The position numbers and the translations under genes are program-made. 64,000 bases of DNA from Marsupella aquatica (lineage: Eukaryota; Plantae; Marchantiophyta): positions 23,225,455-23,289,454 of the forward strand of contig OZ316897.1 of the NCBI GenBank assembly GCA_973895155.1. Direction: 5' to 3'. Below are positions 30,990-57,818 of this stretch, piece after piece. Below the pieces are notes generated by a model, which was given only the letters and a program-made list of their open reading frames with translations, searched no databases and had not been told where the DNA came from. Position 1 is the stretch's first letter, and each line of letters starts with the position of its first letter.

Positions 30990-31860
30990 AAGTAACCCAA
31001 ACCCTACCCTAAACCCAAACCATGAAATGAAACCCTTCATTAAAACCTAACCCAAATCCCTCAATCACCCTAAACCCTTACCCTTATCCTAACCAATACC
31101 CAAATCCCTCATTAAAAATTCAAACCTTTACCCTAAACCCAAACCCCTACCCTAAACCCAAACCATGAAATGAAACCCTTCATTAAAACCTAACCCAAAT
31201 CCCTCAAGCACCCTAAACCCTTACCCTTATCCTAACCAATACCCAAATCCCTCATTAAAATTTCAAACCTTTACCCTAAACCCAACCCAAATCCCCCAAT
31301 TACATATAAAACTCTTACCCTATCTACACCTTACTTTACCTATATAGGCCAACCCCCACCCCTATAGTTATTCTAAACTTCACCCTAACCCCTAAATTGA
31401 GGCCCTTTTTTAAAACTTAAGCAAAAATTGTACCCCCTCAATTAGAACCAAATCCAACCCTATATCATGTTACACCCCAACCCAAACACTTACATTAGAA
31501 ACCCAACCCCTTTAAAAAAACCACAATTAAACCCCCCAACTAAAAACCAAACCCAATCCCTTTAAAAAACAACCACAATTCAACCCCTCAACTAAAACCA
31601 AACCCAACCCCTGTAATTACTCACAACCTAATGCAAACCTCTACCTTGAACCCTAAGCCAAACCCATTAATTTAAACCCAACCCTTTTATTCCAACCTAA
31701 CCCAAGTTTTAACCCCCTTAATTAAACCAAATACTCCTAGATTAAAACCAAATATAAACCTAACCTTTAATTAAACCCAAACCTTTGTTAACTTATATTC
31801 TAGTTATCCTTACAACCCAAACATCCATTGACACCCCTTCCATGTTAACTTATGGGCACT
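30990..31860. repeat. Degenerate telomere-like (CCCTAAA/AAACCC) low-complexity tract with a ~145-bp internal duplication
   Basis: Strong C/A strand skew. The block catgaaatgaaacccttcattaaaacctaacccaaatccctc occurs at ~31021 and ~31164. Confidence 0.8.
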
Positions 31861-34323: not shown

Positions 34324-37300
34324 TTATTTTGTAGAGATACATGCATGAGAGTGACTTGTCATGCCGGAGCTTAGGGTAGGAAGAGGCAGCATAGGTTTAG
34401 AAGGGCGGACCTAGCATCAGATATTTCCCCCCTCTTGTCCATGTATAGGGTTCTTTGAAGCCCTATCATTTTGTTCATGCTTTTCCATTTTATAAAACAA
34501 CAATTTTGCCTTCCACATTGGGTTCCAAGGAAAACCCCTCGCAAATAATGTATTGAATCCTGTGTGATCATAATTTTGCGAACCCTTTAAGAACTCATTC
34601 CCATCGCACAATATTAACCCCAAGGCGTCGCACTTTTTGAGTCAATTAACTTCAGAACTTCAGATCCAAATATGTCGGGTTTTTGTGATACTTCTAGGAT
34701 CGCACTTTCCTAATCGCAACTGTTCACAAACTTCTGAAATCACCGGTATCGCTCTTTGTCATACAATCCCCATCAAAACAATTGAACCAGTATCAATCGC
34801 AAATATGATGCGATGGTAAATCCATCTCAAATATTGACGCCCGCGCGGGACGTGTGCGTGTATGTTTGCGAACCTTATGCGACGTATAATGGATCGCAGA
34901 AGTATTGAATATTGCGAACCTCTCAGCTTCTCAGTTTGCCATGATGTTGCGATGCCGTTGCGATGGTCCGCGTGCGAAGTTATTAGGTTCGCAAAGTGCG
35001 AAGGGGGTGCGATGCGCGTATGTTCGCAATAGCCAGAATTATGAAAATCAGGGGCTTGTTAGTTGCGATGAGATTGTCTTCGCAAAACCGGCTGATAGTG
35101 TTGTAGTCCAAGAGCTCTCAAATCCCAACTTTCTAAGCTGAAGTCCTTGGTGTAGGATAGTCGCTCTAGATGTGTCAATCGGGTAATTGTAACGTGCGAG
35201 CAAATAGTAGAATTTTTTCTTGCACAAGCAAGTTTTCCCCTTTTATTGGGGCCCAAAATGAGGTCCGAAAACTTCCTCCCTAGCATAAAGACACCTTGTG
35301 ATCACAAAAAAGGAGAAGGAAATGGCATTGAAAATGAGGAAACCTGAGCATATTCGTGTGACCTGAATGTACACGGACCAAAAATTAGGACTGATTTTTA
35401 CTCGACAACTCTTGCCACCTGTTTTAACCTCCATGTCGAATCACTATAAATGACTTTCGCTTCAGGCCAGCAAAATCGCTAGTCCAATCACGCTCACACT
35501 TTGGGTCACTCACACGAGGTACGGGCTCCCACATGGGAAAAATCCTACCCGAGGCAATGAAAAAATGGAAAAGTACAGCGCAATCCCTACGTGACAAGAA
35601 TCCGCACTTCATTAGTGACGAGTCAAGGATGATTAAGGCCGTTTGGAACCTAATCATGTCACATGCGAGTGAACGAGAGAATTACCGTTCCAAACCCAAG
35701 GGGAACCCACTTAAGCAAAGCTTGTCAACCCAAAACCTCCAGTGTTTGGAAGCGTTCTCCCGATCATTTCCTCCTTCTCGAGCTGGACCACACTCGCGGA
35801 TTCGGAACTGCTCTCAGTATTACAAGTCCTCAGCGCTCACCCAAATCAAGTTTGGGTACGCGTCTCTTTGCTATGGCTTTGAATGTTATTCCAGTGAAGA
35901 ACTCTTTGTGAAGGCATTCGATGTTTTTCAGCGTGGAAACGCTTTGCATTTCACTAGTGGATTTCATTTGTGATCATTGTTCTGTTATTTTAAGTGCAAA
36001 GAAATGTTTGGAGTTCCAGCAAATCCTTCTAATGGGAAATGGCAACTCGAGGTCCAGCAGTACAACCCAGCGACGGATGGCCCTCTGGAAGCTGACTCTC
36101 CGCCGAAGCGTCAAACCAATGCAGACATTGGCAAGGTCTCCGCGGGTAGCAGTGTCCCAATTGCACTTGTTCAAAAAGATCCATGTGGTGGGTCATCATC
36201 ATCATTGGCGCAAACACCCACGCCACCAAAGTCAGGTCAACCAGTGAAGTCTCCACTGAAACCAAAGATGAGACACGGGGCGAGGCTGCAACGAAGAGGA
36301 AGAGGCTTGCAAAAGAGGAGCAATATTGGATTGAACAGGAGATCCATGACTACTGGACCGAGAAACGCCTTGCCTCTTCCGATTATGATTCGGAGTCGGA
36401 CACAGACTCTGATGCTTACAAGGCCGCCATCCCCTGAGAAGAGACTCAGTTTCTGGGGTTTACGGACCTCTTCCATGTTGAAAGAAGCATGACATGTACT
36501 CTCAAGATGTATATGAAGTAAAGTTCATGTGTTTATGTCTTGTCTGTTTTGTCCACGGATGACTTGAACAACATTCAAGTCTTTGACTCTTTCTATCCAA
36601 CTTCTGCACCTCTTTGTCGTTGAACATGTCTCTTCTTAGAGAGACAAACATGGACCCTTAGTAGACTAGCAAGATTGCTAGTATAATACTGAAATCATTT
36701 ACATCTTTCCAACTTCAACCATATAGATCCTAGTCTTCAGGTTGAATCTGTTACGGGTTTAAGTTGAGAACATGTTGTCAACAGAGGAAGACTGTAACCA
36801 CTACACTGAACCCATTTAGCAGCCAAGAACTTGAATGTTGTTTAGTACTATCAGCCTATTCATTAAAAGTGTATTATTATTTGATTTATGTACATTTGGG
36901 CAATGAAAAGTGTACATTTGGCCAATGAAAAGTGTACATTTGGGGATAGAAATATGTACAATTGGCCTAAAGAGTGTACATTTTGGCAATGAAAAGTGTA
37001 TATTTGAGCATCAAAATAGGTACATTTGGCTTAAAAATTGTTCATTTGAATACATGTGGCCTAAAAAATGTACAATTGAGTGAAAATGCATACATTTGGC
37101 TTTAGAAGTGTACATTTAAGTGTATTTGGTCTAGAAAGTGTAGCTTTGAGTGCAACAAAGTGTACATTTGGCCTAAAAAGTGTACATTTCCTAGCAACTC
37201 TTATTATAATCATTTAAAAGAAAGGAATGAATAGAAAAATATTTTTATTTATGCAAAACAAACAAACATTCATATTCATAATGATCAAACCTTTAGAAAA

Positions 37301-37463: not shown

Positions 37464-40400
37464 CTACTTGTCCATCCTTTGGAGATAACTTTGGACAGTT
37501 TGTAGAACATTTCGAGGAATCTTCAAACCTCTGCCCGCCATGTTTTCTTCTTTCATTCCAGATTTAAAACCATACATTGCAGAATTTGCATACTGCCAAT
37601 GTTGAGTGTTCTCACCAAACCCTGGATCGCGTTCCCACGTCTTAGTGGACATGAAACAGTTTAGATACCGTGCACTCTCAGTCACATCAAGTTTAGAGTG
37701 TTTAGGCCTCCACCATTCGACTAGAAACATTGGAGCATATTGTTGAGGCAGATGAGGGTTTGTTGAAGCAGTAGTTGGGACTTCATGCTTAGGGTCCACT
37801 GAACCCAAAGCTCTCACCAACCAGAAATGCCCTCCACCATTTTTCTTCTCCCAATCATCCTCGGGTCGAAGAAATACAAAGTTCCCTTCACGAATATCCT
37901 GTAGGGGAATCCACCGTCCTTGTTCTCTCTCAGCTTGAGATCCAACAAATGGTGTTGCTTGATCTTCCATCTCTTCCAAGACCTCATTTTGAAGAGCTGC
38001 CATCTCTGCATTCTCCTCATCATTCTTCACTTGGAGGACCACTTTGTTCTGGTTGGTTGACCTTGTAACCAGTGCCGTGGTTAGTCTTAGGCCAAAACTC
38101 ATTTTTCAAGGGAAATTGATTATTTCCCTCCCCTTCTAGTGCGAGCCCATTTGTCAACAACTCCACAATTCTCTCCCAATATTTCACAAGAGGAAATCTT
38201 TCCTTATATGCTATAGATGTCTCATCAGTGCAACTCTTTCTCAAAAAATCAAGGTACTTGTTAAGAAATGGGATAATCTCTTCAGATTTTTTGTGTATCT
38301 CTCCAATGGATTTAGCTAAGGGCTCTCCACTAGGTAAAAGAAGAGAATTTGTTGTCAGATCTGTTGCCCAAATGCACCTTCCACCAACTGGAGCCCAAGC
38401 CTGCTTTACATGAGACTTATACTGAAAAATATTGGTACATTATCTCTCATAGAGAAAAGAAATGATACGGGTTTTGAGTGACCTTGAATATCTTTAACCT
38501 TGAAAGTTTGAAGATATTCTTTGTAAGATGCAACTTCTTGTATCAATCTGGGAACTGGATGAATGCTCTCACATTCCCAAACCTCTGCCATAAGAGCAAG
38601 GAGAGTTGCAACTTCCTTGTGCTGAACTTGATATGATACCTTCAAAAAGAGTGCATCGACATCTTCATGCGTATGACCAACCATTAGAAAAGACATTTGA
38701 ACAGTTTCAAATACTCCTCTACTCACAAGCTCACTACAAAATGCCATGACAGTCTGGTTTTTGTTATCCTTTGCTGAATTATCCATTTGCAATGTTAGGT
38801 GCCTTGGCAAGGGCTTGAAAGTTGGACTGCCTTGTTCCCCATGCATGTCCCCTCCTTGATCCTCACCATGTTGGGTGGAGACCGTCTCCGTCTGACTCTC
38901 GACTGCATCTTCAGAACCAATATATATACCGATTCATTGGAATACCCTTTGGTTCCAAATATCCCTTAAAAAATGCATCAAAGTCAAGAAGGGCTTGAAA
39001 GAAAGGTCTATGAGGTTCCAAATAAAGGCCATCCAACATGTCACCTGTCTTGTCTCCATTGTACTCCTCAAGGTCTCGAAGACACTTAGCCAAGGATGTC
39101 ACCGTGAAATCGGCATCTCCTGGCCAAAGACCAGTGACACTAAAGTGTGCATAAACTCCTGGATCCCTTCCGTGGGTCAACATCCCTGTGAGAGCAATAG
39201 GTAGTGGCATTCCATGACCTGAAAGCGATTTAGGAGTACTGACCATTTTTGGAATCCACGTCTTTGCTTGATCCATCTTGTCATGAATGATGCAAAGATA
39301 TTCTCCTGGATGTTGCTTGGCCATCACTCGATGAGCATAATAAACATATCTACGTGACATTTGCTCATGAAGATGTTGCGCTCGTTTTTCTTCAATTTCA
39401 GCACGTTCTTTTTTCCTTCTTTCTCACATCAAAATATCTTTGTATTCACAACAAAGAGTACACTTGGCAAATGCGCCATCTTTATGGAAACTAAAGTTTG
39501 CGAATGATTTGCTCCAAATCTTGTACAGAGTATTCTCTGTAACTGGAGGAAGCCCCTCTTCCTTCATCTTTGTTCTCACATCTTCTAGAATCTCCAACTT
39601 CTTGTAACACGCTGGAAGACGATACTCAATGGAGTCTGTTCCATGAGCCCCAGCATAAGGTATATGAGGCATGGGCTCCGCATTTCGAGTCAAAAAATCC
39701 TCCAATAGAGCTCGCGCATGCAAGGTATTTGACCTTGTTTTCATGGAGCCTGTGTTTCCATGGAACCCAATTTTGCAACCTTCCACAGATCTCCTTTTGT
39801 AATCATAATATTTTGTGTGGCTAAAGCCATGGATGATTGCAAATGCATGTCTACATACGACCATACCCTTGAGAACATGGTGCCCCTTATCACGAACATC
39901 ATCTTCTCTATAGTGGAAGAGGTTGAAAATGTGTGATGTTTTTGACTCGCTAGACATACCGTGAAATTCTATCCGAATATCTTCTATGTCTTCTCTTGGC
40001 ATAGTCAGACAACATTTCTGCTTGCAACAATTCTCTCTTTTAATTTCATCAATCGAAGCTTCCGTTGTTTTTGAAATTGCCTTGGTTTCCAACAACCTTC
40101 TCTTCTTTTCAATCGGATCTACATGACTCCTCTTGTTGAAATTGTATGGCCTTGTGCGCGGCATTCCTTTGTCATTTATATTTGGACAGAGATCATCCCT
40201 ATCCACTGACTCCATCCTCTCTGAACCTTCAACCAAAATGTCCGACAAAAATTTCCCATTTGCAAGTAGTTTTGTTGAATCAATTCGCCATCAAACCAAA
40301 GTAATTACTCCCCTATGGATGTTGGGAAAGTATTGTGATTCCACCACATCTTTCACAGCAATCCCGACATGGTCCTCGCCAAGGATTTCATCATCAACCA

Positions 40401-41217
40401 CCACTGTTTGTTGAGGCACTGTGATAGTCCCTGTGGCAACCTTATTGGTTTGATCTGAACCAATGTATAGTTCGACCAACTCTGACATCCAATTTGACCG
40501 TTGGAAATAGTCACAATTAGTTTTAGAAATTTCAGCTGACGGAGACTCCACAACAAAACTCCGCTCTATGTCAATATTGTCACCCGCATCCGTCTTTGAG
40601 CAACTCTTTCTACTTTGGACATCCGCCACATCCCAGAGAACCCATGAGTCTTTTGCCTCGTCAATTGTTTCAGCCCCACTATGTTTGTAAGGTAAAACCC
40701 TTCTCCCATGAATGATATTAGTGACCCTCACACTGATCCGTGATTCACCAAGTAAAATGTTGTGACATCTGTCCATTGGATTTGTATTAAAAACAACTCC
40801 AAGGGCTACACAACACCCAAAGATGAACATTTCCACCTCGTCCCCTTGCCTCAGAGTAGTTGATGAGTCCTCCTCTACAATTGGGATTTTCTCCAAATTA
40901 CTCTCCAGTCAATTTGAACAACTACCTACACTGATGCGTTTTTGAGAATTTGTTGTTGTTGATAGATATGCGCATGACAAATCCCAAATAACGCAAGAAT
41001 CAATGGCATCAAAAAGGTTTTCTGCCCGAGGCATCGGAAATGGTAGTTTTGCGGTTCGGTCAAAAACTTTGTCAATGAGAACACCAATTTGATTCTCTCT
41101 CAACAATATATTTTGAACACTATCCTCCGGGTTGATTTTTTGAACTATCCCGCTTGCAACGTTGTAACCGTCAATAGTCAATATCACATTGTCGCCTCTC
41201 ACAAATATTCCCATCAT
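37464..41217 (-). pseudogene. Transposase of copy 2: ancestral ~1250-aa exon broken by TGA stops and frameshifts
   Basis: ORFs starting at 41217, 40896, 40248 and 39360 share one frame, separated by TGA codons (CGA or CGG in copy 1 where it can be compared). Same DDE motifs as copy 1. Splice acceptor tgcag near 41225. Confidence 0.85.
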
Positions 41218-41354
41218 TCTTTCACCTGCACAATTTGAAATGTAAATTATTAGTTAAAGATGATCCCAACTAGGAAGCGAAAAGTTGTCAATCCTATCCA
41301 AGGACAACGCATATGAAGCAAAAAAAAACCTGAACCTAATACTCACACTACGTC

Positions 41355-42815
41355 GATGATCCCTATCTAGCCCTAAAATCCCTTGTTACTAAATATCCAG
41401 ACATTGGACAGGGATGATCCCTGTCCAAACAACGGATAGGGATGATCCTTGTCCAAACAACGGATAAGAATGATCCCTGTCCAAATGGAGGATAGGGTGA
41501 TCCTTGTCCAAACACTGGATAGGGTGATCCTTGTCCTGAAAATGCATAGGGATGATCCCTGTCCAAAAGGCGGATACGGATGATCGTTGTCCAAAACGGT
41601 TAATAGGGATGATCCGTGAGTGTCTAAATATTAGATAGGGATGAACCCTATCCAAATGGCGGATGAAGATGATCCCTATCCAAAAGGCGGATAGAGATGA
41701 AAGAGTCCAAAAGATAGATAGGGTTGATCCTGTCCAAATTGCGGACAGGGTCAATCCCTGTCTACATGATGGATAGGGTTATATGATCCCTATCCAAAAA
41801 TATGGATAGAGATGATCCCTGTCCAAATGGCTAATAGAGATGATCCCAGTCCAAACGACAGATAGGGATGATCCCTGACCAAATGGCGGATAGAGATGAT
41901 CCTTGTCCAAATGGTTGATAGGGATGATCCCTGTCCAAATAGCTGATATGGATGATTGTTGCCCAAACGGTGGATAGGGATGATCCCTGTCCAAACAGCG
42001 GATGAAGATGATCCCTGTCCAAAAGGCGAATAGAGATGATAGAGTCCAAAAGACACATAGGGATGATCCTGTCCAAATTGCGGACAAGGATGATCCCTGT
42101 CTACATGATGGATAGGGTCATATGATCCCTGTCCAAAAAGGTGGATAGAGATGATCCCTGTCTAAATGGCTGAAAGAGATGATCCTTGTCCAAACGGCGG
42201 ATAGGGCTGATCCCTGCCCAAATGGCGGATAGAGATGATCCCTGTCCAAATGGTTGATAGGGATGATCCCTGTCCAAATGGTTGATATTGATGATCCATG
42301 TCCAAACGGCGGATAGGGCTGATCCTTGTCCAAATGGCGGATAGAGATGATCCCTGTCCAAATGGTTGATATGAATGATCCCTGTCCAAATGGTTGATAG
42401 GAATGATCCTTGTCCAAATAGCGGATATGGATGATCCCTGCCCAAATGGCGGATAGAGATGATCTTTGTCCAAATGGCGGATAGAGATGATCCCTGTCCA
42501 AACACTTGACATGGATAGGGATCATCTCTATCCAAATAGCAGACATGGACAATCCAAGTATGTGAACTTGATCTAAAGATAGTAAGATCCCTGTCCAAAT
42601 GGTGGATAGGGATGATCCCTATCCAAACACTTGACAAGGACAATCCAAGTATTTAAGTAGACTTGATCTCTAGACAATAAAATCCCTGTCCAAATGGTGG
42701 ATAGGGATGATCCCTATCCAAACAGCTGACAAGGACAATGCAAGTATTTAACACTAGAATTGATCTCTAGACAATAAAATCCCTATCCAAATGGTGGATA
42801 GGGATGATCCCTATC
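41355..42815. repeat. Tandem array of a ~28-bp unit built on the palindrome TGGATAGRGAT-G-ATCYCTRTCCA
   Basis: Dozens of units such as ggatagggatgatccctgtccaaatggc, with higher-order duplication (block near 41760-41830 repeats near 42100-42170). Confidence 0.95.
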
Positions 42816-43919
42816 GTGAGTTTCACTAGGATCTTCTCAATTCAATAAAATCAAACAACACTAGGTAACTTAGTTATATGATTTCAAAATTTGCAAATAT
42901 CAATGGAATATTTTTCAATGGAGCAATTAATTGAGAGTTACCTGTATTGGAAATGATTCTTGAACCCCAAACTCACTTGACTTTATGCTATCATTTTACT
43001 AGTCAACCAAATGACTAAAATATAGTGTTGAAGGGTAGCTATATGTAAGCTGGTTAACTAGATGCTTCAATAGTGTAGAAGGAACAAATTTTCTTGCATA
43101 TATCTAAAATAAAAGAGGAGAGGTTAAAACTGGATGTTTGGCGGTTCTTTTAAATTCCAAAGTTTCTCAATGGAGCTCCATAATAAACGGAGCTCGTTGA
43201 GAGACTGAATGAAAATCTAAGAAGGAAAATAACAATGAGGTCGCTCGCGGGGTTCTTATACCATTGTTCAAGAGGGATGGAGCGTAATTCTCGCTGTCAA
43301 AGATGAGGCAAAGCGATAAGGCGCAATCGACCTTCACCAGCGGCGGAGGGTTAGGGCTTGTTTGAGGGTTGCGCCTCACTAGTGGCCGTACTTTGCATTT
43401 GGTCTCACATAGTCGGTCGTACATCCTCGGCCTCACATCATTGGCCGTACATCATCGGCCTCCCCCCTGGGAGGGGGTAAAGGAGGCAAGAGGTCCTCTC
43501 TTGACCTCATTCTTCATTTCCTCCTCTTGTGATTCTCCTCCTTCTCCTCCGCTCCTCCTCCTCCTCTGCTCTTGCTCCTGTTGCGCTCCTCTTACTCTTG
43601 CTCCTCTTGTGCTCGATCCTCTCGCTCATCTTGATCCTCCTATGTGCTTCCGCTTCTCTTCTGCTTCCTCCTCCATTGCTACTCAGTCTCCACCGCCGCC
43701 ACATTAGTTGCCCTAGATCTAACGCCTCTTGATCCGCCATGTGTCCAGATTGCCACGTGTTCAAATATGGAGTCAAGTAGGCCTATTCAAGTGGACTTGA
43801 CTACAGAGCCAACAGAGGAGACGGATCTCTCCTCCATTGCGGACGTGGTAGACACGGCCTTGGAGGATTCTAGAGCCTTTCAGTTGCTCAACCCAAGTGA
43901 GTACCTCAAGTTTTAGGCA

Positions 43920-44420
43920 CCGGACAGAGATCATCCTTGTCCAGTTGGATAGAGATGATCTCCATCCAAGTAGACGATAGTGATGATTTCTATTAGTAAT
44001 TCGATACGGATCATTCCCATCCTGTCCAGTTGGATAGAGATGATCTTCATCCAAGTAGAGGATAGTGATGATTTCTATTAGTAATTCGATACGGATCATT
44101 CCCATCCTGTCTATGGATAGAGATCATCCCTGTCCAGTTGGATAGAGATGATCTCCATCCAAGTAGAGGATAGTGATGATTTCTATTAGTAATTCGATAC
44201 GGATCATTCCCATCCTGTCTATGGATAGAGATCATCCCTGTCCAATTGGATAGAGATGATCTCCATCCAGTGATGATTTCTATTAGTAATTCGATACGGA
44301 TCATTCCCATCTTGTCTATGGATAGAGATCATCCCTGTCCAGTTGGATAGAGATGATCTCTATCCAAGCATAGGATAGTAAAGTTGGATAGAGATGTTAG
44401 TAATTCAATACAAATCGTTA
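43920..44420. repeat. ~105-bp tandem repeats containing the same palindrome; the array resumes at 48421-48745 after the LTR-like insertion
   Basis: Units ggatagagatcatccctgtccagttggatagagatgatctccatcc...tagtaattcgatacggatcattccc. Perfect palindrome ttggatagagat-g-atctctatccaa at 44343-44367. Confidence 0.9.
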
Positions 44421-44778
44421 TGTGACGCCGCCGGTATGACGGTTAATGAGTGATTCAGTCTAACTGCGCTCGGCACGCGCGTTAGGTGGGTCTTAGGCCG
44501 CTATTATTAGCATAACGACAGTATTTAGGTAATCATTAGGGGTAGGACATCATTAGGCAATAAGGGGGACTTCAGGTTCGGGCTGGCGGCGGGTCGCTAT
44601 TCGCACACCCGGGTTACGAGCGTGGAGGGGCCCCTCCCTCGGGTCCGTATAACGAACTTAAGGAAGCGGCCACTGACGCACGCTGACTCAGACCGGCGGA
44701 GTGGCCGGTACACCACAAGCGTGAGTGGTTCAACCTATGGGCGTCGAGGAGACGTCGGGGATCGACAAGCCCTCAAAG

Positions 44779-44785
44779 TATAAAA
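44779..44785 (+). promoter_or_regulatory. TATA box of the LTR-like element
   Basis: TATAAAAGGGG ~105 bp upstream of ATG 44887, conserved in the other copy (~916-926, minus strand). Confidence 0.55.
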
Positions 44786-44886
44786 GGGGAGCCAACCCTT
44801 TGTAGTGCACCAGTCCATCAGTCCGCGCGCCAGCTTCGACCCCAGCTCTCTCGTTCTCTCTAGGTCGCCACTACTATCTCCTCTAA

Positions 44887-47388
44887 ATGTCGCACACGAT
44901 CCTCTCCAGCTCGGCCATTCGATTCTGGACGCAGTTCCTATCTACCGGAAGGCACTTGGCCGATTCATTGAAACACGCCAACCCGCGCCGATACGAGATC
45001 GAACGCGAATACGAGAGAGCCATCCGCCTAGCAGGACGACACCACTACGTCCTTAACTTTGACTACCCGTCTCAGAGCGAGCTTTACCGACCAGCTGAGG
45101 TATCTGGGTACTTCTTCAACGGAGACAAATATATCGGGTTCTGGGAAGCATTGCTTCGGCTTCCGGACGAGGTCTTCAATATCCCGGGTACAATCGACCT
45201 GCAGCGACATCACTTCGACCACATCCCTGCCCAGGTTCGGGCTGTCATTAACGGCGAGTCCAGTACCAACCGTTCGACAAGGGCATCCGCACTCGCTTCG
45301 GAGAACTTCTACCAGCACCTGCAGAGCTTCATGGGAACTCGGCCATCAACCAACATGACCAACTCAGCCGGGCCCGTACCCATACCCGTACCCGTGCCCA
45401 TGCAACCTCAGCTTCAGCTTCAGCCTCAGCCGCAGCCTAGCCAAACCCCACCACCTATCACCCAGCCAGCACAGGTACGCTCCATCATCAACGCTGTGGA
45501 TCTTAGCGATGACGACGAGGCTACCCCACCCTTGACCAGGCGGCCCAGAGGAACAAGCGCTCGGGGGGCCGACACTATATCGTCCCCACCCCCTGCTCTG
45601 ACCCCAGGAGCGGCCCCAGCAGACAACATAGTGACCGTGGCCGCCCCGGGCCCGTTACCAACCGCAGTGGCACTCCCCAGGCCCGATCGGGAGGATGGGG
45701 AAGTATCACCTTCCCCGAGTCAGTCACGGGGAAAGAAGAGGAAGGAATCCGCCACTGCATCCGGGTTACCGTTGGCCACGGTAGCCGTAGCCAAGGTGAC
45801 GATGCATCGCATGGGGGAAAACGTTCATAGCAACATCCTCCATCCCAAGCATGCGGTGTACCTGAAGACTCAGGGATTTGAGCACCTCGCCTCTCTCCCC
45901 TGGAACACTTGCAGGTACTACGGGGAGGACATGACGGAATTCGTCAAGAATTATGACGACGTACGTCAACAGACTCGGCTGCGGGGAAGGAATATGTCCC
46001 TCACAGAAGAACGGCTCAAGATGATCTTCGGGTTACCCGAAGGTGACCATCGAGTCGAATCACGGGCTCCCGGGGGCAAGGGGGCCAAGTACCAATCTTC
46101 AAGTTTTCCCTCAGAGGGATCAGTAGACAACGGGTTCGTGATGAGGACCTGCCTCATGCTCGAGATAGCTGAGCGGCTGGAGTTCCAGAGGTACGCTCTC
46201 CACATGATGGAACCCCAGGGGGAGATCTCCGCCGCCCAGGTTATCCAGGTCGAGAACTATCGACCTCGGAAATGGGCGTCGTACTTCGCTAAGAAATTCC
46301 ATGAAGAGATGGAGCGGCGAAGGAAGACGCTGTACATTGGCAGGAAGGCGTATTTTGCTAGCCACATCGAAATCATTCTTGAGTGGTACGCCCGGTTTGA
46401 TCGACGAACCCTTCCCCGCATCAACGTTACAAAGCTGGTCCCAGCTAGGTGGGTTTTTCCGGCATTGGAGAGACGGCCCCAACCCGAGGCCCGAAGTCCA
46501 GTGGACACGCCAGCTTCACCCACCCCACCTCCACAAATAGCTGTAATCGTAACCGAGGAGGCGCCGGAGGGGTCGGTCATCGCAACCGTTGATGCGACCC
46601 AACTAGCCGGGCTAAGTACAGAAGTTGGTACGACATAGGTCTTACCCGAACTCGGGTCTCCCAAGGACCCGCCGGTGGCAATTCCGGAGAACCGGACATC
46701 GCTGCAGGAGGACACTCCAGCCCCTTCCAACGTTATGTCCCCAGGGCTGGACGTCACTGCCCCGGCCCCTGCGCGTGTTGATGTCTGCCCGTGCCCAAAT
46801 CCGGACAGGCACAACTTGGACCACCCGGAACTCTTCGTACAGGGTACGTTTCTGAACGGGCTTCTGGGAGATTTCTCTCATCAAATTGCCCGGGATACCG
46901 GGGAGTTCATGGCCCGGAAGGTAGCCTGTTTCTTCAATCAGGAGTTGGTTGCCGCCGTAAAGGCAGGTCGGGCCCAGTCGGAGGCCCTTCAGAGGATAGA
47001 GCGGTACCGGGTGGAGTCCGTGTACCTAAAGAACGAAGTGGCGGCTCAAGAGGCTGAGCTTCTGCAACTACGACCCAAGGTTGCAGCCGCCGATGAGTTG
47101 TTAGCAAAGGCGTACGCTCTTACCGCCCTAGCCGAACAGGCCAAAGCTGGGAACGAGGCCGAGATTACACGACTCCGGAACCAGATTGACAGTTTGAAGA
47201 AACAAGCTGTCACCTGGCAAAAAGACCTGGAGGAGGCCGAGGAGCGAGCCCAGCGGGACGCGACGGAGATAGCCACACTGCAGGCCGAGATGGCGCGGCT
47301 CCAAACCGAGGCCGAGAAGCAGGACCAGCTGGCGAGTAAACTGACGAGCGACGCCCAGCAGCTGGAGGAGGCATGTCAGGAGGCATGA
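44887..47388 (+). pseudogene. LTR-borne ORF: N-terminal domain, Pro/Gln linker, NLS, plant-transposon-protein (Transposase_32-like) region and coiled coil; one in-frame TAG at 46636-46638
   Basis: The 583-aa and 237-aa ORFs are in the same frame. GFEHLASLPW...EFVKNY...RLRGRNMSLTEERLKMIFGLP resembles extra-ORF domains of plant LTR elements. Confidence 0.6.
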
Positions 47389-48799
47389 CGCGGCGAGGCA
47401 AGAGAACGAATCTCTGCTGGACCAGGTCCAGCTCCTCAAAGCGGACAATGACAGGCTTCGAAGGCAGCGGGATGGCCGTTCCCATTCGGGCGGCTTTGGC
47501 AAGCGTGCCAGGCATTAGCGGCAAAGTAGGAATAGATTAGGATTAGGATTGGCTTAGTCAGGCTCTTGGGACAGGCACCTGCCTTAGGTACAGCAGCGCT
47601 GCCCTGCTGTCCAGCCTGCGTAAATTAGGATCTTCTAATAAGACATAGCCGTTTTCCGGCCTGACTGTCAGCTTAGTTAGGACCTTAGTCAGCGAATCTT
47701 CAGCGTGAGGACACCCCGTTCCTCGGCTCTTAGTATTTAGTGCACCCCTCTGTAGAGGCAGGGGGGTTTTTAGTTTCAGAGTCGGACATCCGCGGGACAT
47801 GCGGGGAGTCTCGACCTCTGGGAATGACAGAGTACCAAGGGGAGGGGGTAGGACTAAGCTCGCCGGGTGAGTGCGGAGCCGGGCTCCGTTGTAGTGTGCA
47901 CCCTCGGCCTTGAACCTGTGCATTCCAGGGCTGTCGTGTCAACTAAGTGTACGCATATGTTCCCTTTGTAGTAAAATCCTTTCCCATCATTTTTCCTTCG
48001 TGTAAATCGAGATTGTATACATGTGTGCGCATATGTGTGTGGGTTTCTCGTATACGGGTGGCAGCGCCGGGCCGAACGCACTACCCGAGATGTGCACAGG
48101 GTGCAGCCTGCGGGTAAGTGGTTGCGAGCACGGGTTGAGGACCTGTATCATCGAATCCGGATCGAAGGCGGACAGCACGAAGGCTTAGAAGCCCTTAAGC
48201 CGGGGTTGATCCTGCTATCGACTAAGGTACGTTCTGGCGGTGGAACACAAACCATACCTAGGAGGTGTCCGTATGTAGCAGTATGCGCACTTAGCGCTAG
48301 TTTACGAGAATAAGGTGCATTACGTGCTTCCCTTCCTGCCCGAACCCTCAGATTTACGAGGGATGTGCCCGTCTAAGCTGAAGTCTGAGTTAAGGCCGAA
48401 GCCTACGACGTGACACGTTAACATTCTCTACTTGGATAGAGATCATCCCTGTCCAGTTGGATAGAGATGATCTCTATCCACATAGTGGGTAGAGATGATT
48501 TAAAGTTTTTAAAAGGTTTTGGATCTTTCTCGTCCTTTGCCCCATCATCCGCCTAGATAGAGATCATCCCTTTGTAGTTCTCTATCCAAGCAAAGGGTAG
48601 TGATGATTTGAATTAGTAATTGCATATAGATCATTCCTATCCTATGACTGAAATCATCTCTGTCCAGTTGGACAGGGATGATCTCTATCCAAGGAAGGGA
48701 GAGTGACCTCTAGTTGGAATCGGATAGAGATCATCTCTGTCCAAACTTATAGAGAACCCCAAATTTCCAGTGACAAAACTAATAACCAGGTCAGAGGTG

Positions 48800-51700
48800 G
48801 CTCTTCCAATAATGGAGGTGAATGACACTTGGATGGAGGATGCGACGGGGGACACACCCCGGCGTAGGAAGGGCGAACAGGCTTTTCGGGAGGGACACAA
48901 TTTCTCTCCGGGTGGACGGGCACGTATCTAGGAAAATAGGATCATTGGCTCCTTGGTTGCGGTTCACACAACATGATGAGAACTGTACGCATTGTAACAT
49001 GGAATGTTTGTGGCTTATGCAAGCCAAACCGAAAAAACATCGTTAAAAATTGGATTGAAGGCCGCAGAGAGAAGATTGATATCATGGCGCTACAAGAAAT
49101 CAAGGCCGACCAATTCCGGCTTGATATCGCTCTAAGAGCAATACTACCACTATACCAGCACTTAACATCTGCCCCGGATGAGGGCAGAGGAGGCTCTGCC
49201 CTGCAACTGCATCCGGACCTTAAGATTGTAGCACGGGGAGTTGTTGATTTGGGTAGAGTTGTGTGGGCACGGATTGAGGTTGACGACATCACTTTTGGCA
49301 TTGTAAGCATTTACACACCTAATTCCCCTTGCCAGAGGGCGGGCCTATGGCATGAGCTGAAGCAACTCCTCCCCTAGGGAGACTGGATTCTAGGGGGTGA
49401 TTTCAACATGACGGAACTTCGAGAAGATTCTACGGGAATTTCTCCTCTGATTAAGGGACGAGAAGCAGAGTTCTGGCGCTTCTTGAGAGTCAGATTGGAC
49501 TTGGTCGATGCTATAAGGATTAAAGGAGAAGCCATGGGCGCACATTTCACCGCAGGTTCAGGAATACGGGAACAGTGCAGTCAAGACTGGATAGATTTTA
49601 TTTCAGCGGAAAAGGAGAATGGATAGAAGAACTCACGGAATTGATTCATGATGGGGGATCTACGCTTTCGGATCACGACCCAGTGGTGATAATAATTGGA
49701 CTGGGAGAGCGGACGAACAACACTCCCCTCCTTAGGGGGGCAGTTTTGTTCAAGGCCGATCCTACAGTGGTCAGATACCAGGAAAATTTGATTGCTCTAG
49801 AGGGCGCATGGAACGCTGGAAAGGGAGGATGCATGGAGCCGTTGCTGGCGTTCGATCGAGCTAGTAGTAGGATGCGCCAGATGTATAGGATGAAACAGAG
49901 CTCCCCAAAAGAACGGGCGGAAGAGATGAGGGTGCTGCAAAATAAGCTACGGGAATGCAAGGAGGCTTTACTGGATGCCCATTCGGAGGATGATCTGAGA
50001 ACGTATGTCGAAGCAGAAGATCTTTTGCATGTTGCTGAATTAGAAGAAGCACATATAAGTAGACATCATGCCAGGATCAAATGGCTGGGTGAAGGGGATG
50101 AGCCCACCCGTTTTTATTTTGCTATAGTGAAAGCTAAGAGAAGCAGGGAGGCCATGAGGACTCTGTCAACGGAGGGAGGAGGTACTATTAATGAGCCGAT
50201 GGCTATTCTTCAGGAAGTGATATGACACTGTAAAGAACTATATGCCCCCCCTCCTCTTACAACCGGGGAGCACCGAGAGCGGCTGAGAGCAAGGAGCACC
50301 CTCCTAGCTCACACTAGACATACAGTAACCATATCAGATTTGAATAGGATGGAAGCATTGCCCACTAGCGAGGAAATCAAGCAAACTCTCTGGCTACTGC
50401 CGTCGGATAAAGCCCCAGGCCCGGATGGTATGACTGCTGAGGTTTATCGGGCCTATTGGGAGTTTATGGGAGTGGACATAGTGGCAATGATACATGTTTT
50501 CTGGCTGACAGGTAAACTGGCTGCAGGAGTGAAAGATGGGATTATTAAATTTATTCCGAAGAAGCCGGATAAACGTTTCTTGAAGGACTGGAGACCCCTG
50601 ACTATGTTGAACACGATTTACAAGCTTATTGCTAAGATCTTGGCCAATAGATTGAAGCTGGTTCTAGTTAAGCTCATCAACGTACAGCAGACAGGGTTCA
50701 TCCCGGGCAGGAATATTTTGGAGAACATTTCGCTTGCCTGGCTAACATGTGATTGGGTTAAGAACAGGAAAGTGGAATCCCTGTTTCTTAAGTTGGACTT
50801 TGAGAAGGCCTTTGATAGAGTAGATCATGAGTACATTTGGGAATCAATGCATCTGCTAGGGATTGGCAGCAACTTTATCAGGTTGGTACAGGAATTACTA
50901 AGGGACTCATCTTCGCGAATACAGGTTAACGGTTTGCTGTCAGAACCGATGGGCGTGGAGCGGGGCGTTAGACAGGGCTGCCCGCTTTCACCCTTACTGT
51001 TCGTTATCTCCACTCAACCACTCATGGATCTCATGGATGCTGAGCTTGAGGCGGGAAGATTACTGGGGATCAAAATCACGGATGAGCTAACAATATGCTA
51101 TAGGTTATTTGCGGATGACATGGGGATGTTTATCCCTGCCACTTTGAGGAGCTTTACAATGGCCACAACTGTTTTGCATTGCTATGAAACAGCAACTGGT
51201 GCAAAACTCAACCTGCGGAAATCCATTGTCATCCCACTATCACTGGATACTATACCAAGGTGGCTGTCAAATACAGGTTGCGTGATTAGTCACAAAGGAG
51301 AGCTACAGAAGTACCTGGGTGCTCCCCTGGGGGTAGACTTGAAGACGGAGCAACTGCATAGATTTGTTCTAGATAAAATCGGCATGCGCTTATCCTCCTG
51401 GGCAAATAAACTTTTGTCCTTTTCAGGGCGGGCACTTCTGGTGAGACATTTTACAGGCTATTCCTATTTACCACTCCATGTTCCTAAGAGCGTCTGAGGG
51501 ACTTGCGAAGAAAATGATTGCGCTGTGCCGGGACTTTTTATGGGGATACAACTCGGAGGGGGGCAAGAGGATCCCTCTTGTTTCTTGGGCCAGAATGGCC
51601 AGACCTAGGATGGAGGGGGGACTCGGGCTGAAAGACTTCCGCAGCCACTCTGACGCTCTGTTAGCCAAATGGTTCACTGGAGCTCTAGATTGCCCGGAGA

Positions 51701-53100
51701 CGGAATGGGCCTCTCTCTTTGCAGAAAATCTCAAAATAGTGCGCTGGATGAATTATAAGTGGATACGCTGGAACAAGTACTCCTTTCAGGATAAGATGTT
51801 GTTATGCAGCCCTCGGTCCTTCAATGGACTGGCATATACTGGAGGACTGTGGAAGGCGTGGGTACAACTTTGTTCCCACCTGATATTTGCACCCACTGTT
51901 ATGATACCTGGTAGGTGGAATATCATGGACACTATACGCTGTCTCATTGGTTTCCAATCCTGGCCCAACACAAATTTTGCTGTGGTCACTGTGCTGTGTG
52001 GCCGAATGGGCATCAGAGGCATTCAGGATTTATGGTCTGCTGAACAGAATGAGTGGCGTAATCTGAATGAGCAACTAGAACACCTTCAAGGCTTTACTCC
52101 GCTTGAGAAAACTTGCTGCAGGGAGTTCTTACAGAAGGTCAGTGCTATAGATGGTTGCAGGATGAACTATGTTACTGGTTCCCGATGCTGGAGATGGGCT
52201 GACAGACCTGATACTATCAATACTTTTAGGATATCCAATCTAAGGGCATACATGTTGATTCGCCCCCCCCATCAGAGACTACGACAGCCTGAATCACACT
52301 TGGGGTAGCTTGAAAACGGAAGGTGAATGGAATGCTGGGTGGAGTGGACTGTGGCGCTCTGACCTTTCCTCCCGTGCTAAGACTTTTCTTTGGAGAATAT
52401 TGGCTTCAGGTCTCTTTACCGGTGTTCGAGCAAGACGCATTGATAAAGGAGAAGGGCACTGTAAACTGTGTAGTGGAGAAATAGAAACTATCCCCCATCT
52501 TTTTGCACAGTGCGTTCATGCCAAGAGATGTTGGTCACTTGCTGCCACTTGTTTTTCAGGAACCTTTACAGATTACTCGGGTAGACTACTAGATCTACTG
52601 ATTCTCACAACATCGAAGGACCCTAACACAGTAGCCAAACTATTTATTCTCTATCAGATCCTTTGGTCTTTATGGCAGAGCAGGAATGTACACATGTTTC
52701 AGGCCAATGGCTTTAGGACATTTGATCTTTGCTTTACCCTCTCAGAGGCTGTTGACCATGCATCGGCGGTGGGCCTGTGTTTACCCCCGAGCAGATGACA
52801 CACACGATTGTTACGAGTGAAGGAGATCCTTATTCAGGAAAGATTAGTGTGGCTTAACAGCCGGCAGACTTGGATCACATCTAGATAGGAACTATGCTGG
52901 CCAATGGGGAATGCAGTACTTGAGCTCTACTTTCACCTGGTGTGGATCACTGTTTTCGTGGTGGACAGCCTAGTCTCTAGGCTTTCATCACATGTTGTTG
53001 TTTCCGCTCTTCAGGCGGGGTGGTTGATTGTGTGTTGCGGGTCACTTTCCTGTTTTCCTTGCCACGGGGTTTTCGTGGTCACTAATAAATTAAGAAAAAA
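48800..53100 (+). mobile_element. Degenerate L1-type LINE (ORF2: AP endonuclease, reverse transcriptase, zf-RVT); 5' boundary approximate
   Basis: IVTWNVCGL, LQEIK, GGDFNM, SRLDRFY, SDHDP, KAPGPDG, WRPLTMLN, KLDFEKAFDRV, GVRQGCPLSP, LFADD, KYLG, CKLC...ETIPHLFAQC. Stops and frameshifts throughout. Ends aataaattaagaaaaaa at ~53084-53100. Confidence 0.93.
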
Positions 53101-54769
53101 CATTTCCAAGGAATAATTATGCATGGTTGTGGCAATTCAGGGAGTACTCTCAATGCATTGAAACCACCAATTTCAGAGGCAGATTGTTCTGAGGGAGTCT
53201 TGCTTGAGCAGAGCAACCCAGACTTCCATTGGGGCCTTGAGTTCTCCAGAGTTGATTTTGATTATCTTAGCACAACAAAGAGACGGGAACCCGTGTTGTG
53301 CATAAAGGTCAGAACGTCAGAAGGGGAGACTCTTGTAATTGGACCTGTAGTCTTCGTTGGAATTGAAGGAAGGGGATTTGTTTCCGTCATTCTTGAGCTC
53401 CATGAAAGAATAAGGTGGGTTAAACTTCATCTTCCGTCAAAGGCATATTCCTCCGAGTTCAATATTGAGTGGTCTGCTGTTGGAGAACTTGGCGTGTTGT
53501 CAATGGGATTTTTCCCAAAATCATATTCAGCTCAGAAAGTTATTGCAGGGGTGAAGGGGATTCTTCCACTCGACATCATGTATGGCTTCCAATATGTGAA
53601 GCTAAATATCCATAAAAACCAAGGGAATTACACAATCCCGGTTACATGGGTTTTAAATAATCTGCTTGACAAGGCAGGTTTACTATCTTCAGAGTTAAGT
53701 GTTTGGCTTGACAGGAACATTGCATTTGATGAGGAGTTTGTGATGGATAATGCAAAAAAGTGGATAAATTCATTACCCAAGCCGACAAATGTTCCACCAG
53801 TAGCGGTGAAAGAGCTTCCACTAGTAGTTGTGAACACGGAAGTTCCCAAGCCACCAAAGTATCCCAGGAGACAACAGGGACTGCAAGAACAACAGCTGGG
53901 ACCGCAGGAACAACAACTGGAACAAGCACCAAAAGAGTGGTAGGGAAGCGGAGAAAAAGAGAGAGCAAGGAGCACGAGAAAATTGAGACACTGCCAAAGG
54001 AACCCGAGAAGAAGCCAGTAGGGAAGAAGAAACAGAAGACTGACAAGTCTATCATGCAGTCAACCCCTGCAGAAGTACAGATGCTCCCAGAAGATGAGGG
54101 AGACAAACTTGATGCCCCTGAGGAGAAGAAGGTCTTAGAAGGAAATGATGTTCTCCAAAGAATAGAGCAGTACTATACTTTTGGGATAAATGAACTGTTT
54201 TCTATTCCAGTGGAGAAAATTATGCCTGCACCAGCAAGATTATGTTACAGAATGCTCAATAGTACCCATGTGAAGCACATAGCCGAATCCATGGTCAAAA
54301 ACCCTGGACATGAACCTCATGTTGCAGACCTGCTTCCTTACAATCCAAAGCTTAGAAAGTTGCTCCATTTTGATAGCACGGAGAACGACCGCAAAGACTT
54401 TCTTGCAGGTGTGAAGAAAGGCGAGATTGGTTTCTTTGCCATCAGCGGGCAACATTCGGCTAGGGCGGCCAAGTGGGTTATCGAATGGGCCAAAACTGAT
54501 GCCAAGCTCACAGTGTTGGCAAAAAAGTTAAAATACAAGAAGTCTAGATTATTGTCAGACCTTACACCATCGGCTATATTAGTTGAGCACTCAATGAGAT
54601 CAAATGCCATCAATTCGACGATGGTGTTTCAATCGTGCTTCAAAGATACAATTGTTCATGCAAGGAAACAATTCATTGAATGCAGAGCACCAAGAAAGCC
54701 AAAGCACGGGGACAACAAGTCAAACGCCCAAGACAATCAGAAATTTCAGGTGAGAAACGTATTTTCTTG

Positions 54770-55120
54770 TTTGGATAGAGATGGTCTCTGTCCAAGAGTG
54801 TGACCGCCCGTTACACTGATTTTAGTTCAATATATTTTTTGGTTATGACTTGGATGGAGATGATCTTTGTCCAAGAGAGAGACCGTCCGTTACATTGATT
54901 TTAGTTCAACACATGTTTTGGTTATGACTTGGATGGAGATGGTCTCTGTCCAAGAGTGAGACCGTCCGTTTCAAAGATTTTACTTCATTCTACTTTTGGT
55001 TTTGACTTGGATGGAGATGGTCTCTGTCCAAGAGTGTGACCGTCCGTTCTAGAGATTTTACTTCATTCTACTTTTGGTTTTGACTTGGATGGAGATGGTC
55101 TCTGTCCAAGAGTGTGACTT
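54770..55120. repeat. ~63-80-bp tandem repeats inside the predicted intron, each with a palindrome variant TTGGATGGAGATGGTCTCTGTCCAA
   Basis: Five units visible between donor 54750 and acceptor 55169. Confidence 0.9.
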
Positions 55121-57818
55121 TTGGTTTATTTAGATAACTCATAACATTCCCCCCAATTTTTGATTGCAGGATTATTTAGCACTGGCAAGGATGACCATGG
55201 GGAGAAAAGCCTTGAAAAATGTATACTGGTTGCTTTTTGCCCAGAATGATCTTTTTGAGTTATGGCAGTTAGTGTGCCAGATGTGGATTGATGGAAATCT
55301 TCCTGATGGAGCTGGTACACAAGGAAACAAAAGGTCTGAAAAGGCAATAACAGTCGCAATGTTTCATTGTTTTGATGGTAAAATCTCAAATAGAGATTTG
55401 ACCAAAATTTTGAGCAAGGTGAAGTCAGGTCAGGTTTTATTGAAGAAGGATCCGACAAATAAGTCAGATGTTCCAACGATGGAGGAGTTTGCAAAGGAGG
55501 TGAAGATATTGATCAAATTGAAGTCTCTTATTGGAGATTACTACTTCAAGAAGGATCCAAAAAACTTCCCAGCAGATACTCAATGGGTTAAAGTAATTGA
55601 GGTCCTCCCATTGTTAAGTGCCGAGTCAGAGTTGAACAGGTGCCGAAGAGCGGCTGGTGAAGTATGGTTGACAAATTTATTGAAGTCTAATCATACAAAG
55701 GAGAGTGAGATATTGCCAATGACATTGGTGATGCGTCTAGATGATATTTACTGTCAGAAGTTTGGCGGTGGGACAAGTTCTCGGACCCAACCGTGGGTCA
55801 CATTTTTTAGTAACAACCTAATGAAGACAGTGGATCTGGAGTCGTTGGAAGAACAATCTCCAACATGCCCTCTTGCGATTGTTGATTTCAGCCAACTTCA
55901 ACAGAAGGAGTGGACTGAAGCAGAGATTTTGGTCCTCTTCCAATATATAGTAGAGCTACCACGGAATCCCACCATTGTTGTGATGATAACTGTCCATCCG
56001 GGTTATCTTGTACTGAATGTCCTAAGCGCTCTTCGTAAATTAGGACATTCAAAAACTTTAAGCATTCACATTGAGTATGGGAGTTATTCTCGAGATGATC
56101 AACCTCACCCTCATGACTCATGTTGGAAGGGAGGAATAGAAGAAGTTATCTTTGCCAGAATTTCTCGCAAAGAAAATGTCAGCTGGGATGAAGTGTTCAA
56201 GCCCAACCAAATGAAGCCAAAATGGGTGTATGGTGAAAAGGATACTGATTTTGTCGTTGAGAAGATCAAAGGGAATGGAACGGCGAAGGGAAAGAACACG
56301 GACGAGGAGTCAATGGATGAAGATCTACGAATTGTGATGACCCTAGAAGAGGCGACAATACTTCTGCACATGGCACCTCGATTTGAGACTGTTGGGGCTC
56401 GCGGTGGATGGGTGAATCCTCATGCCAAACCCACCCGGATGATCCAAAAGATCATCCAAACATTATCCGAACCAGGGGATTTGATTCTTGACTTTTTCTC
56501 TGGCGGTCAAGTGATAAAGACATCCCTTTTTTCTCAACGTGAATGTTTTGTTTATTGTGACTCTCAACATGAGAGACATTTTTTGGAAGCATACGCTTCG
56601 TTCCTTTGCGAGAGGGTTCCCACCATCAAAGATCGTTATGATTGCTATGTTGGTGGATGTTCTAGACATTGGGAACCCTCTTCTGCCGCTGTTGCTATTC
56701 ATGATGAATCAGATGGTGATCAAGAAGATGGAGCTGACCAATCAGTCAAAGGTGATGGGCCATCGGAGGGTGCATATGTGAAGAATTTGGATGACCGAGT
56801 TGGCGAGGGTGAAGATATTGACCTTGTGGAAGACGACATGATTGTTGGATCTGCACCTTGTAGTTCACCAATTACAGATGTTGCCCCCATGGGCCCCAAC
56901 GAGGGCCAGTTTGATGATAACTTGGATAGAGATGGTCTCCATCCACAAGTGCCTGGACAAGAGATGGAGAAAATGAGAGAATCAGAAGTTGATACATTTG
57001 AGAAACTTTCTTCAAACAACCTTCTCAATCAAGGTGCGGAGAGGCATGGTGAGTCCAATGAACTTGACACATTGGGATTGAGAGCAGAGACCATCCAAGT
57101 ACCTGACATTCCCGTCAATGAAGCAAGTGCATCCACGACTGCTGACAACCAGGCAGGTGCTTCAATTTGTCCCAATACACTCTTTTCCGCTTCTGATGAC
57201 AAATTAGTGTTTGTTCGGTCACAATCAAGAAGTCCTGTTATCCTTCCGATCTCAAAAAAGAAAGGAAAGAGAGTAGCATCAATGGGATATAAGTCACTTG
57301 AATATGATTGCCGATGTTACGTGTGGAAAAGTGGACCAGATGTAGGAACCGAAGTACCGTTGGATGCTGCTCAATCAATTTTGAACAATGACTTACAAAA
57401 AGCATAAGAAAGATCCAGCTTATAGAAGCGGAGAATTGGGATTGATGACTCCAGTTTGGTCTGCACCTTATTGGGTAGAGGAGAGTACCTCCGATGTCAA
57501 TTATGAGATCCAACAGGAGCTCGATGATGATATCTTGATTGATGAATATGGATCTCATTGTTAGCCAAGGGCTAAGATTTAGCCATGTGACCTTATCAAT
57601 TTGATATAATATAGTCTGTATAATTATACTTCAAGCGCGCCTAACAATTAGAGCATAAGTATCAATATCCATTTCCTTGTTACGGTTGCTCAATGAATAC
57701 GGTCAGTATGCAGATTTTCTTTGTGGTTGGCCACTTGTGTTTTTTGGATGGAGACAATCTCTATCCAAACTTCAAATGTGGTTTTCTCTCTAAGATTGGT
57801 ATTTGTTGCACTTGCAGA

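Follow-up and report, generated by a model that had tools for sequence, protein, structure and literature searches.

We found that a long palindrome recurs, singly and in tandem arrays, in a stretch of 64,000 nucleotides from the liverwort Marsupella aquatica (contig OZ316897.1, positions 23,225,455 to 23,289,454 of the forward strand; hereafter the window), and that every match to it in a scan of the window lies within two copies of one DNA transposon. The element carries a DUF7869-type transposase gene and a cargo gene for a protein with a ParB/Srx-fold domain and a methyltransferase (MTase)-like domain. By analogy with regulators of other plant transposons, we tentatively favor, at rather less than even confidence, the reading that the palindromes are densely clustered binding sites of a dimeric protein with sequence specificity, which would regulate or de-silence the divergent genes of the element. 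The core of the motif is a degenerate 21-mer, GGAYAGRGAT-S-ATCYCTRTCC, whose arms surround one central G or C and which is often extended to T...AA. The central base switches between G and C among the sites and the motif is dyad-symmetric, so that an array has no single orientation.

The pattern GGATAGAGATNATCTCTATCC, searched with up to 3 mismatches, matched 34 times in the window and in none of 100 shuffles, and the arrays called with Tandem Repeats Finder (TRF) agree with these matches, which bears out the repeated, arrayed palindrome that an initial annotation of this DNA had described from the letters alone. With a looser pattern (GGAYAGRGAT-N-ATCYCTRTCC, up to 4 mismatches) we counted 64 sites, one in copy 1 of the transposon and 63 in copy 2. 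The annotation had also proposed that the motif is confined to the element, and within the window this was upheld: all 68 exact half-sites fell in the two copies, and no palindrome site was found in the nested insertions (8.3 kb) or in the host DNA (36.8 kb). This test of confinement has little power, because chance alone would put ~0.3 half-sites in the remaining ~45 kb. A motif scan of viral contigs found no match.

The palindromes of copy 2 are organized in arrays of several unit lengths. A 28-bp array occupies 41406–42502 (38.9 units of GGATAGRGATGATCCCTGTCC followed by AAATGGC), with degenerate units from ~41355. It is followed at 42512–42815 by a 95-bp repeat called by TRF (3.2 units, each with one intact palindrome and decayed monomers), and at 43922–44419 by the left part of a ~108-bp array (TRF periods of 85, 108 and 205 over 43922–44379), whose unit comprises four ~27-bp monomers, two intact and two decayed. 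The right part lies at 48420–48745, with a TRF double site at 48432–48480 and the last palindrome at 48722–48742. These parts had been taken for two separate ~105-bp arrays; in fact they are one array, split by a nested unit. A 48-nt double palindrome is 100% identical at 44319–44366 and 48433–48480, and the 23 nt that end at 44419 and the 39 nt that begin at 48420 are consecutive parts of the 108-bp unit. Because the flanks continue the 108-bp unit in register, we regard 44420–48419 as a nested insertion. Two smaller arrays lie further along: a 79-bp array in the cargo intron (54771–55118, 4.4 units with one palindrome each, GATGGTC centers in four of five) and a 39-bp repeat (59003–59082, 2.1 units by TRF) in which a half-site scan located one half-site, ATGATCTCTATCC, per unit. 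The earlier description of three arrays with different unit lengths holds insofar as the arrays are present, but all appear to be built from one ~25–28-bp monomer; judging from the unit sequences, the 95- and 108-bp units are higher-order repeats of it in which some monomers have decayed, and the 79-bp unit is probably another.

Four single palindromes were found where the initial annotation had put them. The site at 40184–40204 lies inside the transposase coding sequence, in a non-conserved linker (motif scan and homolog alignment), and its equivalent in copy 1 (1426–1446) lies in the same kind of variable linker; a third (56924–56944, center GATGGTC) falls in a non-conserved acidic linker after the MTase-like domain, and a motif scan placed the fourth (57746–57766) between the MTase-like and NIF/FCP1-like reading frames. 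The sites in coding DNA are thus in linkers that are not conserved among homologs of the two proteins, and we count this in favor of the protein-site reading. A placement of the site at 1426 as 9 nt after the transposase start was considered and rejected, as full-length homologs have ~290 more N-terminal residues.

The transposase gene (37464–40908, minus strand) and the cargo gene (53119–57407, plus strand) are predicted to be divergent, with the array region between them. With the nested 4.0-kb unit and a nested long interspersed nuclear element (LINE) removed, the transposase start (~40908) lies ~3.9 kb from the cargo ATG (53119); array makes up ~2.2 kb of this distance, and the last palindrome ends 37 nt before that ATG. 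The cargo start is backed by a 510-residue homolog that aligns from its first residues, and the cargo intron (54750–55169) has GT..AG ends, its exon junction being bridged by a homologous protein. The position of the array between divergent genes, together with the array in the cargo intron, fits a regulatory role. The palindromes are central or intronic and not subterminal, with just two half-sites near the right end. The subterminal DNA holds a different 15-mer, AAAGTGTACATTTGG, which has 22 matches at up to 2 mismatches vs 0.31 expected and occurs at both ends of the element (TRF and motif scan), on the plus strand at 36889–37191 with ~22-bp spacing and at 59130–59210. From their sequence and placement, these repeats seem likelier transposase sites than the palindrome, and since this separate subterminal array would be available for transposition, the palindrome would have another job.

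We compared nine contexts in the window, with one representative each: the 28-, 95- and 79-bp units, two monomers of the 108-bp unit and the four single sites. Mean agreement across them was 8.14 of 9 in the 21-bp core vs 4.61 of 9 in the 14-bp flanks, where it reached 5.62 of 9 in the four adjacent bases on each side and 4.20 of 9 further out. The palindrome is the sole part common to the nine contexts, confirming the earlier claim that it is kept while the spacers differ. Within the 28-bp array (27 in-register units) the excess is small, 0.90 in the palindrome vs 0.84 in the spacer. The palindrome had further been characterized as containing GATC, and GATC does occur in 41 of the 48 good sites, but it is missing from the other seven and is not the conserved part; a GATC at the central position is not what is kept in the sites. 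The kept feature appears to be an inverted pair of 10-bp half-sites that tolerates two transitions, and neither a stem nor GATC.

The cargo protein, which might recognize these sites, consists of an N-terminal region, the ParB/Srx-fold domain and, beyond the intron, the MTase-like domain. Its gene is followed by a reading frame for a NIF/FCP1-like phosphatase (57697–58665, plus strand; PF03031, E value 6e-16), and a Riccia sorocarpa homolog joins the MTase-like part and the phosphatase in a single fused protein. Just 7 homologs of the cargo were detectable, a small family, and the exon before the intron has 90 relatives. The ParB/Srx domain was modeled with a predicted local distance difference test score (pLDDT) of 90.6, and ParB, Noc, KorB, sulfiredoxin and SbnI chains topped both fold searches. 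The top Foldseek matches were Noc, ParB, KorB and sulfiredoxin (E values 5e-3 to 0.1), and VIA-align gave Z scores of 7.5–4.5 (PadC 7.5, KorB 7.4, pNOB8 ParB-N 7.2), where a Z of 2 was reached by just 15 of 48,161 chains. The fold matches are limited to the N-terminal ParB/Srx domain (model residues 35–210), no Pfam helix-turn-helix (HTH) family was found in the cargo, none of 35 family members matched Pfam ParBc, and the ParB arginine patch, the cytidine triphosphate (CTP)-binding motif GxRRxRA, is replaced by a nearly invariant S-G-Q-H-S-x-x-A.

In the MTase-like domain, NPxxKP...DFFSGG (the SAM-binding motif I, FxGxG, with NPxxKP ahead of it) is invariant in 8 of 8 members, and the cargo-family profile matches residues 223–268 of M.RsrI (E value 1.3e-7). 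The match to PF01555 (E value 1.8e-5) scores 25.3, below the cut-off of 26.7, and motif IV reads D-F-[SGT]-[RQ] or D-L-T-H in all eight members and not (D/N/S)PP(Y/F/W). Because of the altered motif IV and the Pfam score below the cut-off, the domain is predicted not to be an active methyltransferase. The initial annotation had spoken of a ParB/MTase-like protein of the element; this description is right for the ParB/Srx fold and motif I, but the protein has neither the arginine patch nor DPPY.

A scan of metagenome contigs for the degenerate 21-mer returned 11 loci. Nine of them are single matches, mostly perfect hairpins in unrelated contigs, and their number is about that expected by chance, as estimated from the information content of the pattern. 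The remaining two (L003 and L008) are 99.5% identical to each other. L008 holds an array at 3506–4243 of 11.7 units of 63 bp, each with CCGC-GGATAGGGAT-S-ATCCCTATCC-GCGG, in which the arms are nearly invariant and the center is least conserved (palindrome 0.93 vs spacer 0.84). Its spacers are unrelated to those of the element, and the reading frames on either side of the array are directed away from it. We consider the contig eukaryotic because it has Ty1/copia fragments. Beyond the motif it shows no nucleotide or protein similarity to the window, and the open reading frame (ORF) neighboring the array had no match in the Atlas. We judged it unlikely that a palindromic array would match this core by chance. 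Each 63-bp unit of this array also has a G-box-like CACGTG palindrome, 8 nt upstream of the 29-bp palindrome.

We favor the protein-site reading because of the position and density of the sites, the sharp boundary of their conservation and the independent 63-bp array. In the proposed mechanism, a putative dimeric protein would bind the inverted half-sites of the 21-bp dyad. The candidate binder would be encoded by the element itself. It would be either the transposase or the ParB/Srx-MTase-like cargo, which in that case would serve to recognize DNA and not as an enzyme. Binding would activate transcription or counteract silencing, as VANC and TnpA do. One ~27-bp monomer would have given rise to the arrays through slippage or unequal exchange, and single monomers would have been copied locally into the intron, into linker-coding DNA and near the right end.

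Several observations weigh against this reading. Neither the cargo nor the transposase showed a recognizable DNA-binding domain. The 10-kb L008 contig, searched also with three protein profiles, yielded no relatives of the transposase, of the cargo or of the ParB-like domain, and the array there could be a coincidence. At Y and R, the two variable positions of the arms, just 14 of the 48 good sites are symmetric, and of 111 changes counted from a perfect ancestor 71 are C>T or G>A, a predominance of transitions such as decay of a methylated repeat would produce. Decayed monomers are common in the higher-order units, the arrays all reduce to one monomer and may have a single origin, and the single sites share variants with neighboring arrays (GATGGTC, GGATGG, flank AAACTT), as expected from local copying. 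A further point comes from six public sequencing runs of four organisms, none recorded as RNA, that contain part of 39000–48900. We placed contigs from four of these runs on that region at ≥85% likeness and compared the summed contig depth. In the two best runs it was 15k–250k over 39.0–40.0 kb (part of the transposase), 3k–48k over 40.3–41.3 kb and 190–2200 over 41.3–44.3 kb (arrays and a non-repetitive stretch), contig depth being a rough measure in which non-coding DNA drops below the likeness cut-off before genes do. The runs of two further organisms gave almost no depth over the array-bearing 41.3–44.3 kb. The low depth of the array region compared with the transposase part argues that the arrays are not a conserved feature of the wider family. 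Several run contigs skip or repeat parts of 41.4–44.3 kb, and array length thus differs between copies; the central region is present in few, close copies and changes quickly.

Many of these points speak for a neutral minisatellite, in which a palindromic ~27-bp monomer expanded by slippage or unequal exchange and was copied nearby by repair, without any sequence-specific function: the single monomer behind all arrays, the frequency of decayed monomers, the asymmetry of the arms, the dominance of transitions, the varying array length and the low contig depth compared with genes, to which the small excess of conservation within the 28-bp array can be added. We take this as the main alternative, at about one third confidence. 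What it does not readily accommodate is the sharp drop of conservation at the palindrome edge over nine contexts with unrelated spacers, the presence of copies in at least five separate places of the element's own non-coding or linker DNA, and the identical core in the unrelated 63-bp array. That same foreign array, lying in a eukaryotic contig in which relatives of the element proteins were not detectable, is a point in favor of a conserved host transcription factor, for which the arrays would be an enhancer captured by the element; the arms also hold GATA/GATC-like and TATCC-like words, which occur in plant factor sites. A 21-bp dyad is long for such a site, and the motif is in none of the host-gene promoters of the window, so we regard a host factor as unlikely.

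About as unlikely, in our estimate, is the specific suggestion of the initial annotation that the palindromes are parS-like loading sites or methylation targets (GATC) of the ParB/MTase-like cargo. The N-terminal fold of the cargo and the relation of its MTase-like domain to beta-class amino-methyltransferases (M.RsrI, PF01555) would suit such a role, and once the insertions are removed, 37 nt separate the end of the array from the cargo gene downstream of it; parS sites, likewise, often adjoin parB. Against it stand the features of the protein described above, namely the altered motif IV in all eight members with a sub-threshold Pfam score, the replacement of the arginine patch by SGQHS, and a ParB match that covers the N-terminal domain only, with no HTH seen and no ParBc hit among 35 members, as well as those of the sites, since GATC is missing from seven of 48 and the center is the least conserved part of the metagenome array. 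It seems very improbable that the palindromes act structurally, whether as cruciforms in the DNA, as hairpins in RNA or by giving rise to small RNA. Single strands of perfect copies of the palindrome do fold stably (−9.3 to −12 kcal/mol, z −4.3 to −6.3), but the commonest unit of the 28-bp array, the largest, does not (−1.1 kcal/mol, z 0.28); no compensatory changes were found among the 48 good sites, the arms do not co-vary, 34 of the 48 are asymmetric at the two variable positions, and no Rfam family matched the window or the L008 contig.

The reading as binding sites for an element-encoded protein can be compared with known systems. The short motif bound by VANC21 builds up into dynamic tandem repeats within introns and upstream regions of the family that encodes this protein (Hosaka et al. 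2017, PMC5735166). The likeness to VANC and VANDAL elements suggested in the initial annotation is borne out by the dense arrays in non-coding DNA and in an intron, but does not extend to orientation or protein family. The VANDAL21 arrays resemble ours as fast-changing tandem repeats of a short motif, dense in the element's own upstream and intron DNA; their motif is 9 bp, asymmetric and in one orientation, whereas ours is a 21-bp dyad (PMC5735166). VANDAL21 is a Mutator-like element and the present one a DUF7869-type transposon of a liverwort. VANC-family proteins bind their motif and remove methylation; no VANC-like protein was detected by Pfam scans among the 31 reading frames scanned here.

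TnpA of Spm needs high-density motif clusters, according to a preprint (10.64898/2026.08.24.746577). As there described, TnpA of En/Spm (CACTA) is alike in proposed role, an element-encoded regulator that activates its own family by way of clustered cognate motifs whose density gives specificity. The TnpA motifs in that account are subterminal, whereas here the subterminal slot is taken by the 15-mer AAAGTGTACATTTGG and the palindromes are central or intronic. We found no TnpA relative. The ParB-parS and KorB-operator systems of bacteria and plasmids are alike in having a dyad site of ~16–20 bp beside the gene of a ParB-fold protein. ParB-parS differs in its few sites, compared with dozens in tandem here, and in its protein, the cargo matching the N-terminal domain only, with no arginine patch, HTH or ParA seen; Pfam scans of the window reading frames turned up no ParA partner.

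Eukaryotic transposons such as DIRS1 bear inactive MTase domains, and phage ParB-linked MTases have been taken up by eukaryotes, as stated by Iyer, Zhang & Aravind 2016 (PMC4738411). The DIRS1-type domains are comparable in being transposon-borne and MTase-like with disrupted catalytic residues; they belong to another MTase class and another element type, and no link to a repeated motif is described in the accessible part of that paper (PMC4738411). The MTase-like domain of the cargo is probably of phage or prokaryotic ParB-MTase origin. In a more specific scenario, which we consider improbable as a whole, a catalytically dead, phage-derived ParB/Srx-MTase, together with the FCP1-like phosphatase, would read the element's own palindrome arrays and thereby turn the element on or lift its silencing. 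Such an anti-silencing system would have arisen separately from VANC and TnpA and would have been built from a prokaryotic DNA-modification module.

Motif arrays that guide a plant transposon's own protein to its copies are known from Arabidopsis. The long dyad motif, the bryophyte host, the unclassified transposase and the prokaryote-like ParB/Srx-MTase-like-phosphatase cargo set the present case apart, and no description of DUF7869 elements or of this motif was found in the literature searched. If the protein-site reading is true, self-recognition through dense motif arrays would reach beyond flowering plants (VANC, TnpA) to bryophytes and to an unclassified transposase family, and the cargo, which has no known function, would gain a testable role. 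If the arrays are only a satellite, the locus nonetheless illustrates cleanly how higher-order repeats grow and how insertions come to be nested in a palindromic array.

Copy 2 of the transposon (36851–59258, 22.4 kb) is bounded by 24-bp terminal inverted repeats at 36851–36874 and 59235–59258, and copy 1 (1–4806), in reverse orientation, runs off the window and ends at a terminus (4783–4806) that equals the left end of copy 2; self-BLAST gave 94.7–97% identity between the two. The transposase of copy 1 lacks its 5' part and abuts, at 1284, the left end of a nested 4-kb unit, and alignment to full-length homologs places this junction within the transposase coding sequence. We rejected copy 1 as proof that the arrays can be absent: it is a truncated derivative, cut at the nested unit and running off the window, and is therefore uninformative on the arrays. 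A 2–4-bp target-site duplication of the element itself, CT/ACT, is possible from the sequence.

The DUF7869-type transposase gene of copy 2 (PF25273, E values 1e-37 to 1e-42) is degenerate, with several frame breaks and one in-frame stop, and its extent from ~40908 down to 37464 was set by full-length relatives (~1100 residues), which match the N-terminal part. Its nearest relatives are in the liverworts Calypogeia fissa (66% identity) and Riccia sorocarpa, which by itself points to a liverwort-like bryophyte as the host. The transposase had no match among PDB sequences, and a fold search with a model of its zinc-finger region (pLDDT 71) gave none; relatives of the transposase or the cargo were not found in viral contigs. 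Pfam scans of the 31 reading frames found only DUF7869, a weak N6_N4_Mtase, NIF and the domains of the nested elements.

The nested 4.0-kb unit (44420–48419, plus strand), delimited by its in-register flanks, has no palindrome site and one ORF (44887–47388) of ~830 residues with a coiled-coil C-terminus and no Pfam family; a search of this ORF in the Atlas gave leads all under 0.9. It showed the highest summed contig depth in the two runs, 65k–340k vs 190–2200 in the arrays, and looks like an unclassified, very abundant mobile unit. The unit starts with ATGTGACGCC in both copies (1–1284 in copy 1), and in copy 2 it has a possible 4-bp duplication, CGTT. The nested LINE (48770–53101, plus strand; Pfam RVT_1 and zf-RVT), with AP-endonuclease, reverse transcriptase and zf-RVT domains and likewise no palindrome site, is flanked by a 7-bp target duplication, ATTTCCA. 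It inserted 10 nt upstream of the cargo ATG and parts the array from the cargo gene.

The outer flanks of copy 2 (36663–36835 and 59314–59485) are 81.5% identical in direct orientation, and copy 2 appears from this to sit within a ~200-bp repeat that is either dispersed or tandem. Repeats of the plant telomere type (TTTAGGG/CCCTAAA) occur up to ~100 bp from the outer ends of both copies (~4880–4900 and ~59285–59300), and a larger interstitial block of this type is found at 30994–31322. The gene content of the window is that of land-plant nuclear DNA, with an intronless PPR-DYW gene, Harbinger and CACTA transposases, a LINE and gag pieces of long terminal repeat elements. The intronless PPR-E-DYW gene (16603–20109, minus strand, 1168 residues) contains an internal tandem repeat of six 303-bp units (17468–19290, 89% matches), which by its sequence appears to be a recent expansion of PPR triplets.

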